Assembly: GCF_056746865.1 (NCBI RefSeq)
Contig: NZ_CM163382.1
Reading direction: 5' to 3' (one strand)
DNA length: 64,000 nucleotides
Shown: positions 2,694 to 16,521 of the stretch, piece after piece
How the letters are laid out: each line of letters begins with the position of its first letter
How positions within the stretch are numbered: the stretch's first letter is position 1
Program-made: the position numbers and the translations under genes
The notes under the pieces: model-generated
The model's database searches: none
Seen by the model: the letters and a program-made list of their open reading frames with translations, nothing else
Told to the model about the DNA's origin: nothing

Positions 2694-2711
2694 GCCTGAT
2701 GCGACGCTGGC
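2694..2711. repeat. Left half of a second REP unit (gcctgatgcgacgctggc), interrupted by IS150
   Basis: Joins with 4144..4165 (tggcgcgtcttatcaggcctac) to reconstitute canonical REP gcctgatgcgacgctggcgcgtcttatcaggcctac. Confidence 0.6.
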
Positions 2712-3466
<755 letters not shown>

Positions 3467-3570
3467 ATCAGCATACTTGTCCTTAGCCTTCTGCAGTGAC
3501 AGCTGGTAGTACAGCGTGCTTCTGGCCAGCCCTGCAGCCTTTAACAGGTCAGACTGGCAGTGTCCGCACC

Positions 3571-4092
3571 TCAGGCTCCGGATGACTTTCGTTTTTTCTC
3601 CAGCTCCTGGCGCTTTTTTTCCAGGAGATGCTCCTGCATGGCTTTCAGATATGCATTTTCTGCGCGAAGATAACGCAGCTCATTCTTCATCTCTTCCGGC
3701 GTCATGTTTGCCTCGTTTTCATGGGTATCATCAGAACGGGTCATACTTTTCTCCTTCCTGCGCCTGATAAAGGCCTCATTACCAGATTTGCGGTAGCCTT
3801 TTATCCAGTTTTTAACCGTGTTGTGGCTGGGAATGTTAAACCGGGCAGCTACCCGGGGTAGAGACTCAGAATGCCCGAGAGCATAAAGAACCACGCAAAG
3901 TTTATCTTCAGGAGAATAGCTACGCTTGTGTCTGCAATCCAGTGCCCGAGGACCGTGAAGAAGAAAAAGATTAATCCAGTGTGAGAGGCTGGTGTGAGAA
4001 AGTTGAAAGAGTTTTGCCGTAGAAATGATGCCTGCATGACCAGCCAGGTAATGATTTACAGCGGCAAGTTTTACTTCAAATGAATGTTTCAT
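3571..4092 (-). CDS. insJ: IS150 transposase OrfA (InsJ), HTH DNA-binding protein, 173 aa
   Basis: Translation MKHSFEVKLAAVNHYLAGHAGIISTAKLFQLSHTSLSHWINLF...; ATG at complement 4090..4092 (ORF track starts 3 codons earlier at GTG). Confidence 0.9.
   Translation of the reverse strand: MKHSFEVKLAAVNHYLAGHAGIISTAKLFQLSHTSLSHWINLFLLHGPRALDCRHKRSYSPEDKLCVVLYALGHSESLPRVAARFNIPSHNTVKNWIKGYRKSGNEAFIRRRKEKSMTRSDDTHENEANMTPEEMKNELRYLRAENAYLKAMQEHLLEKKRQELEKKRKSSGA
3613..3620 (-). other. Programmed -1 ribosomal frameshift slippery heptamer A-AAA-AAG of IS150
   Basis: cttttttt on + strand = AAAAAAAG on coding strand near 3' end of insJ; IS150 frameshifting is established knowledge. Confidence 0.6.
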
Positions 4093-4143
4093 AAACTGCA
4101 CCTTCAGATGTCAGATTATGTCCAACATTTGGGGTGCAGTTCA

Positions 4144-4165
4144 TGGCGCGTCTTATCAGGCCTAC
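4144..4165. repeat. Right half of REP unit split by IS150
   Basis: tggcgcgtcttatcaggcctac; see 2694..2711. Confidence 0.6.
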
Positions 4166-4221: not shown

Positions 4222-4252
4222 AAAAAGCCTGCTCGCTGAGCAGGCATTTCGA
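4222..4252 (-). terminator. Rho-independent terminator of proK
   Basis: aaaaaagcctgctcgctgagcaggcatttcg: GC stem-loop followed by U-run on minus strand immediately 3' of tRNA. Confidence 0.75.
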
Positions 4253-4255
4253 ATT

Positions 4256-4332
<77 letters not shown>

Positions 4333-15408: not shown

Positions 15409-15529
15409 ACTTTTATCCACTTTATTGCTGTTTACGGTCCTGATGACAGGACCGTTTTCCAACCGATTAATCATAAATATGAAAAATAATTGTTGCATCA
15501 CCCGCCAATGCGTGGCTTAATGCACATCA

Positions 15530-15688
15530 ACGGTTTGACGTACAGACCATTAAAGCAGTGTAGTAAGGCAAGTCCCTTCAAGAGTTATCGTTGATACCCC
15601 TCGTAGTGCACATTCCTTTAACGCTTCAAAATCTGTAAAGCACGCCATATCGCCGAAAGGCACACTTAATTATTAAAGGTAATACACT
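15530..15688 (+). promoter_or_regulatory. cspA long 5' untranslated leader (cold-box / RNA thermosensor region); 5' boundary approximate
   Basis: About 160 nt AT-rich leader upstream of cspA ATG; cspA leader function is established knowledge, TSS not determined here. Confidence 0.55.
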
Positions 15689-15901
15689 ATGTCCGGTAAA
15701 ATGACTGGTATCGTAAAATGGTTCAACGCTGACAAAGGCTTCGGCTTCATCACTCCTGACGATGGCTCTAAAGACGTGTTCGTACACTTCTCTGCTATCC
15801 AGAACGATGGTTACAAATCTCTGGACGAAGGTCAGAAAGTGTCCTTCACCATCGAAAGCGGCGCTAAAGGCCCGGCAGCTGGCAACGTAACCAGCCTGTA
15901 A
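15689..15901 (+). CDS. cspA: Major cold shock protein CspA, 70 aa
   Basis: Translation [70 protein letters not shown]. Confidence 0.98.
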
Positions 15902-15928
15902 TCTCTGCTTAAAAGCACAGAATCTAAG

Positions 15929-15958
15929 ATCCCTGCCATTTGGCGGGGATTTTTTTAT
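15929..15958 (+). terminator. cspA rho-independent terminator
   Basis: atccctgccatttggcggggattttttt. Confidence 0.8.
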
Positions 15959-16088: not shown

Positions 16089-16241
16089 TTACTCTTTCAA
16101 TTTGCAGGCTAAAAACGCCGCCAGCTCATAACTCTCCTGTTTAATATGCAATTCACACAGTGAATCTCTTATCATCCAGGTGAAAAATAAAAGCGTGAAA
16201 CAAATCACTATTAAAGAAAGTAATCTATATTTCTGCGGCAT
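16089..16241 (-). CDS. hokA: Type I toxin HokA (Hok/Gef family membrane peptide), 50 aa
   Basis: Translation MPQKYRLLSLIVICFTLLFFTWMIRDSLCELHIKQESYELAAFLACKLKE; intact frame. Confidence 0.9.
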   Translation of the reverse strand: MPQKYRLLSLIVICFTLLFFTWMIRDSLCELHIKQESYELAAFLACKLKE

Positions 16242-16301
16242 TCCCAGCCCCCTGTGTTGATTTCCAACGAGTAAGAGGCTAACCTTATGGTGTCTATGCA
16301 T
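16089..16301 (-). CDS. mokA: MokA, in-frame upstream reading frame coupled to hokA translation, 70 aa
   Basis: ATG at complement 16299..16301; frame continuous into hokA; hok/mok/sok architecture is established knowledge. Confidence 0.6.
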   Translation of the reverse strand: MHRHHKVSLLLVGNQHRGLGMPQKYRLLSLIVICFTLLFFTWMIRDSLCELHIKQESYELAAFLACKLKE

Positions 16302-16521
16302 AGAGGGGCCTCACTTTGATTTATAGTCAGGTGGGGCTTTTCTCTGTCTGCCTTTCGGTGAATACCTGAGACAAACAGTCTCAAGCACCCGCAGCTATTC
16401 TAGCTTAATAAGTTCGTTTCTTCTCCTTGATATAATCCTAAAAAAATCTCATAAAATTAATATATGAGACAATCTTTATTCAGCAGAAGATTATTAAAGG
16501 TTGCTCTATTATTTAGCGATA

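Follow-up and report, generated by a model that had tools for sequence, protein, structure and literature searches.

An intact −1 frameshift window in a copy of IS1397 inserted between dppA and proK of Escherichia coli

Insertion sequences of the IS150 subgroup contain two open reading frames, orfB being shifted by −1 relative to orfA, have an AnG slippery motif in the overlap, and code for a transposase with a D(57-60)D(35)E motif followed by a downstream K (PMC5771124). The heptamer A_AAA_AAG ranks among the most efficient −1 frameshift heptamers of E. coli, owing to the shiftiness of lysyl-tRNA, and stimulatory hairpins are described as having their start 4-10 nt beyond the motif, a G-C closing pair plus at least three pairs and an unfolding energy of at least 7.6 kcal/mol (PMC4066793). 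In IS911 and dnaX, A_AAA_AAG is combined with an upstream SD-like GGAG and a downstream stem-loop (PMC4066793), and both stimulators are experimentally proven; IS911 belongs to a different IS3 subgroup from IS1397. For IS1397 itself, the reported specificity is insertion into REP/palindromic units (PU) (PMC1525189).

We conclude with high confidence that positions 2712..4143 of the window (the whole 64,000-nt stretch of DNA analysed), read on the minus strand, constitute a complete IS1397, which belongs to the IS150 subgroup of the IS3 family, has the loops of REP/palindromic units as its targets and would produce OrfAB by a −1 slip on A_AAA_AAG, probably with the help of a hairpin. The element and its main parts are as follows.

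2712..4143, minus strand: IS1397, complete, 1,432 bp, TG...CA termini; 99.9% identity and 100% coverage to RefSeq IS1397-family copies.
4119..4143, minus strand: IRL, TGAACTGCACCCCAAATGTTGGACA, an inverted repeat; five other copies have the same terminal 30 nt.
2712..2736, minus strand: IRR, whose reverse complement (read inward) is TGAACTGAACCCCAAAACCTGGACA, forming an inverted repeat with IRL.
3571..4092, minus strand: orfA, 173 aa with helix-turn-helix domains (Pfam HTH_28, HTH_Tnp_1 and HTH_29); ATG at 4092, stop TGA at 3573..3571.
2744..3619, minus strand: contribution of orfB to the fusion, read in the −1 frame and extending from the heptamer as far as the stop; Pfam rve, rve_2, rve_3 and HTH_21.
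3211..3209, 3031..3029 and 2923..2921, minus strand: catalytic codons D295, D355 and E391 of the integrase core, numbered in the fusion, which also has K398.

A megablast search of 5,426 complete E. coli genomes returned full-length matches to 2712..4143 at 99.9% identity and 100% coverage. Every match among those listed is annotated as "IS3-like element IS1397 family transposase", and the RefSeq copies that were fetched, against which the identity of the element was judged, carry joined CDSs with the note "programmed frameshift". The window element has the same length as these annotated copies and codes for a fusion transposase identical to an NCBI protein that bears the same product name; against the NCBIfam IS3-family equivalog transpos_IS3 (cutoff 160) the fusion reaches 388 bits. 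Its sole difference from the annotated copies compared is a synonymous substitution at position 3745, where an A on the plus strand gives AGT rather than AGC, both coding for Ser. RefSeq annotates the same locus of strain 118UI as dppA, an IS1397 transposase with 'programmed frameshift', tRNA-Pro and eptB; the window shows one mismatch to it in 5,461 nt, at position 3745, and the window element likewise differs from a further 118UI copy, at pepN-ssuB, by one mismatch at that same position. The window contains exactly one copy of IS1397.

The preliminary description had assigned the element to IS150 and its reading frames to insJ and insK. The resemblance is genuine at the level of architecture: IS150 of K-12 belongs to the same subgroup, places orfA in frame 0 and orfB in frame −1, shares the DDE-K motif and the TG..CA ends, and follows its A_AAA_AAG with a hairpin that holds the orfA stop, all as in IS1397. 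Moreover, K-12 does have an IS150 about 13 kb from dppA. The two are nonetheless distinct elements. Their DNA similarity is limited to blastn patches of 25-70 nt, their lengths are 1,432 and 1,443 bp, and OrfA and OrfB are only 27% and 51% identical to those of K-12 IS150; the name that RefSeq gives to the element is IS1397. A search of the whole 64,000-nt window found no IS150 DNA. That the element is IS150 and the site the insJ/insK frameshift signal is thus exceedingly improbable. On sequence similarity, the reading frames are to be called orfA and orfB of IS1397, and the names insJ and insK do not apply, because there is no meaningful DNA similarity to K-12 IS150 and the protein identities are so low. 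Alignment to the IS150 reference, which had been proposed as a check, fails since the element is a different one and not on account of point mutations or indels. IS150 is not known to be PU-specific.

The confusion with IS150 is probably explained by the K-12 copy at hokA/sokA, about 13 kb from dppA. The corresponding site, beside cspA and glyS, maps to about 16273..16313 and is unoccupied in the window, where about 39 bp that are missing from K-12 at the IS150 junction are present.

16239-16390, minus strand: sok antitoxin RNA, full-length (Rfam).
15529-15956, plus strand: cspA thermoregulator.

The empty IS150 site, the additional 39 bp or so and the full-length sok together make the hok/sok locus look intact in this strain, as far as its sequence indicates.

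The features that define the IS3 family and the IS150 subgroup were found in the window element: the layout of the reading frames, the slippery motif, helix-turn-helix domains in OrfA, the DDE-K residues and the TG...CA ends. The catalytic pattern is D(60)D(35)E with a K seven residues downstream of the E (D295, D355, E391 and K398), and the terminal inverted repeats are imperfect and about 25 bp long. The exact OrfA protein occurs on at least 1,000 contigs. No stop interrupts the −1 frame between 3679 and the TAA at 2746..2744; the heptamer lies within this open stretch, which overlaps orfA by 109 nt. In the orfA frame, on the minus strand, the region reads ...CAG GAG CAT CTC CTG GAA AAA AAG CGC CAG GAG CTG GAG AAA AAA CGA AAG TCA TCC GGA GCC TGA. 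The elements of the frameshift region are listed below.

3613..3619, minus strand: slippery heptamer A_AAA_AAG in the orfA frame (GAA AAA AAG), part of an A7 run at 3620..3614; a fusion at this site equals an NCBI protein.
3631..3634, minus strand: upstream GGAG, a candidate stimulator 12 nt upstream of the heptamer, in agreement with the 6-17 nt rule (PMC4066793).
3622..3636, minus strand: CAGGAG-CAU-CUCCUG, a perfect 6-bp hairpin in the MFE fold that holds the SD-like GGAG, immediately upstream of the heptamer.
3572..3609, minus strand: predicted 38-nt hairpin, −12.4 kcal/mol by RNA folding, whose 3′ arm contains the orfA stop.
3592..3597, minus strand: second run, of six A's (G_AAA_AAA_C), located in the loop of the hairpin; it is not the annotated shift site, and a fusion there is absent from NCBI proteins.

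The heptamer has the form X_XXY_YYZ in the zero frame that characterizes −1 frameshift signals, and 13 codons (39 nt) separate it from the orfA stop TGA at 3573..3571. The initial report of a heptamer at 3613..3620, just upstream of the stop and with the second frame open across it, is accordingly borne out, apart from the gene labels and from the interval, which spans the full A7G octamer whereas the canonical heptamer occupies 3619..3613. AAAAAAG occurs 34 times in the window on both strands; chance would not be expected to place one in frame within the 109-nt overlap. A −1 slip on A_AAA_AAG would give a 449-aa OrfAB with the junction ...LLEKK/APGAGEK... (...LLEKK/APGAGEKTKVIR...), the predicted junction peptide being LLEKKAPGAGEK, and this fusion is an exact match to an NCBI protein found on 81 contigs. 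The claim of an intact frameshift site giving a fusion transposase therefore stands for a −1 window of the IS3 family and an OrfA-OrfB fusion, which is not InsJK. With its open frames, DDE triad, terminal repeats and target duplication, the copy in the window is structurally intact.

The heptamer is invariant in five other E. coli alleles that are up to 3% diverged. Deeper conservation was assessed with 25 full-length relatives recovered by a scan of viral contigs, at 35-55% OrfB identity, a set suited to motif conservation and too distant for nucleotide-by-nucleotide alignment of the IS1397 hairpin. All 25 have orfB in the −1 frame, and the overlap contains an in-frame A_AAA_AAG in 22 of them and A_AAA_AAA in the other three. 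In plasmids, tblastn found three IS1397 copies, all other relatives being at most 44% identical.

Could OrfAB arise instead at the level of transcription, from an mRNA to which RNA polymerase has added an extra A by slipping on the A7 run? Insertion sequences are the largest group known to use such slippage (PMC1088944), and seven A's are available here (3620..3614). However, productive bacterial runs have nine A's, or eight in some organisms (PMC1088944), and relatives keep the X_XXY_YYZ register with just six A's after a T (TTTAAAAAAG) together with a downstream hairpin. A fixed register over six A's and a downstream hairpin are hallmarks of ribosomal frameshifting, which is also the mechanism attributed to IS150 by Vögele et al. 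1991 as cited in PMC5771124. We therefore regard transcriptional slippage as very unlikely.

The overlap also contains the second A run, G_AAA_AAA_C (3598..3592), where slipping back by one base would likewise yield a 449-aa fusion, with the junction ...QELEKKTKVIR.... Yet this run makes a poor heptamer, as the P-site tRNA would have to re-pair on GAA with a mismatch, and it sits in the loop of the predicted hairpin without a comparable structure downstream. The corresponding fusion is found in no database protein record. In addition, the run is interrupted by an A to G change at 3592 in the diverged allele of E. coli WP5-S18-ESBL-08 (L006), which keeps the first heptamer and is still annotated as a programmed frameshift. 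A shift occurring mainly at this second run is hardly credible, and we retain A_AAA_AAG at 3619..3613 as the probable slip site.

Folding of the RNA downstream of the heptamer, another check suggested in the preliminary description, did yield a candidate structure. The 38-nt hairpin (3609..3572, −12.4 kcal/mol) begins four positions beyond the motif, with a C-G pair that is followed by three more pairs, so that the prediction agrees with the published hairpin rule (PMC4066793). The mean for other 38-nt windows in the following 197 nt is −7.4 kcal/mol, the fold z-score of a 161-nt region is only −2.1, and an extended form of the hairpin (3613..3566) folds at −17.6 kcal/mol. An unconstrained best-hairpin search proposed a long alternative fold for IS1397; it was rejected as being selected for maximal total energy, and the 38-nt hairpin was retained. 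Variation among alleles lends the hairpin weak support: one G.U pair becomes A-U, one pair of the outer 4-bp helix is broken in the WP5-S18-ESBL-08 allele, and no compensatory double changes were found in the hairpin among the IS1397 alleles compared. In the protein homologue search, the best 120 matches were all IS1397 variants at 99% identity or more and so of no use for covariation. Judging from these models, the 38-nt hairpin and the GGAG are plausible stimulators of frameshifting.

A hairpin is also found at the homologous position of IS150 and most relatives, but its conserved long-range stem, GCCUUAG(U/C)UC...GA(A/G)(C/U)UAAGGC, starting 5-7 nt after A_AAA_AAG, is unrelated. While IS150 and many relatives thus form the stem GCCUUAGC.../...GCUAAGGC, IS1397 lacks it and uses the unrelated CAGG..CUGGAGA/UC.UCCGG..CCUG; conversely, GGAG is present in IS1397 and absent upstream in IS150. 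Most of the viral-contig relatives (L012-L045) have this conserved stem, at about 1950-2030 in each, where its 3′ arm encodes a conserved ELR of OrfB. The GGAG and hairpin of the window element are compatible with the arrangement of IS911 and dnaX, although those of IS1397 are predicted from sequence. Tentatively, and with low confidence, we suggest that the stimulator set of IS1397 may differ from that of IS150 and most relatives, with a short hairpin almost at the heptamer that has a second A run in its loop, plus an IS911/dnaX-like GGAG sequestered in a small hairpin of its own. If true, the IS150 subgroup would include a minor variant of −1 frameshift control.

In the mechanism that we propose, most ribosomes translating orfA would stop at the UGA (3573..3571) and release the 173-aa DNA-binding OrfA. 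A fraction would slip back by one base on A_AAA_AAG (3619..3613), the two lysyl-tRNAs re-pairing from AAA-AAG to AAA-AAA, and would then continue in the −1 frame to give the 449-aa OrfAB transposase with its DDE catalytic core. The slip would probably be helped by the hairpin 4 nt downstream (3609..3572), and the GGAG 12 nt upstream may contribute. We infer that the slippage is ribosomal, that hairpin and GGAG stimulate it and that the copy is able to transpose.

The insertion lies in a REP palindrome between dppA and the proline tRNA gene (proK), with the following features at its boundaries.

2708..2711, unstranded: target-site duplication TGGC, copy 1, from comparison with the empty site.
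4144..4147, unstranded: target-site duplication TGGC, copy 2, from the same comparison.
2694..2711, unstranded: one half of the split REP/palindromic unit, GCCTGATGCGACGC plus the loop TGGC; the inverted repeat extends into the flanks.
4144..4161, unstranded: the other half of the unit, an inverted repeat in the reconstructed site.

Removal of the IS and of one TGGC from the window restores the palindrome GCCTGATGCGACGC-TGGC-GCGTCTTATCAGGC, which is the exact empty site found in strain SCU-105. The window copy, located in a palindromic-unit loop with a 4-bp duplication, thus matches the specificity reported for IS1397 (PMC1525189), and five copies at other loci are all in PU loops with 3- or 4-bp duplications. 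The locus is occupied in 217 of the 5,426 E. coli genomes, and 4,593 have a contiguous empty site. On its flank, the gene for tRNA-Pro(CGG) (4256-4332, minus strand) is directly followed by a terminator-like hairpin (4227-4245, minus strand); the IS lies between this terminator and the upstream region of dppA, in the same orientation as both genes.

Two further copies deserve description. E. coli WP5-S18-ESBL-08 carries at 538-1969 of L006 a variant 96.9% identical to the window copy (44 mismatches), in exactly the same PU loop and with the same GCCA/TGGC duplication, and its flanks are also diverged; it could be either an old shared insertion or an independent hit on a hot spot. In E. coli UM146 (L005, 539-1969), a 1,431-bp copy with one gap relative to the window copy occupies a PU that closely follows a 5S rRNA gene; it retains an intact heptamer and hairpin, although RefSeq classifies it as a 'frameshifted' pseudogene.

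Transposition of IS1397 is the subject of Clément et al. 1999, as indicated by the title cited in PMC1525189. From its sequence, the window copy is likely competent for transposition, and recent activity of this allele is likely, because insertions fall in PU loops, occupancy is polymorphic and some strains are multicopy. A structurally intact copy could nevertheless be functionally dead or silent, for instance through lack of a promoter or host repression, leaving the site without consequence for the strain. No sigma-70 promoter turned up when the element was scanned with a strict consensus, and an insertion common to 217 genomes did not happen very recently in this strain. Resident promoters of IS3-family elements are, however, typically weak, and such a scan would miss them. 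The protein is identical to that of copies at several loci within single genomes, close strains have IS1397 at 5-11 places, at least 40 places are occupied in BH100, and only the synonymous change at 3745 separates the window copy from its sister copies. We thus consider a silent copy rather unlikely and favor a transposition-competent one. E. coli BH100 (NZ_CP025251.1, e.g. L008), with its 40 or more places against a median of 1-2, has apparently undergone a burst of IS1397 amplification.

The frameshift window is real and intact; it belongs to an element that is already described and routinely annotated, and it brings no new biology. The correct annotation is IS1397, orfA/orfB, with a programmed −1 frameshift. 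The window copy may be relevant to genome instability: the E. coli chromosome offers an intact IS1397 several hundred REP/BIME palindromes as targets, and copies of the element can be a substrate for recombination with one another. The element is also a modest marker of strain-level polymorphism, its insertion between dppA and proK being common to about 4% of complete E. coli genomes.
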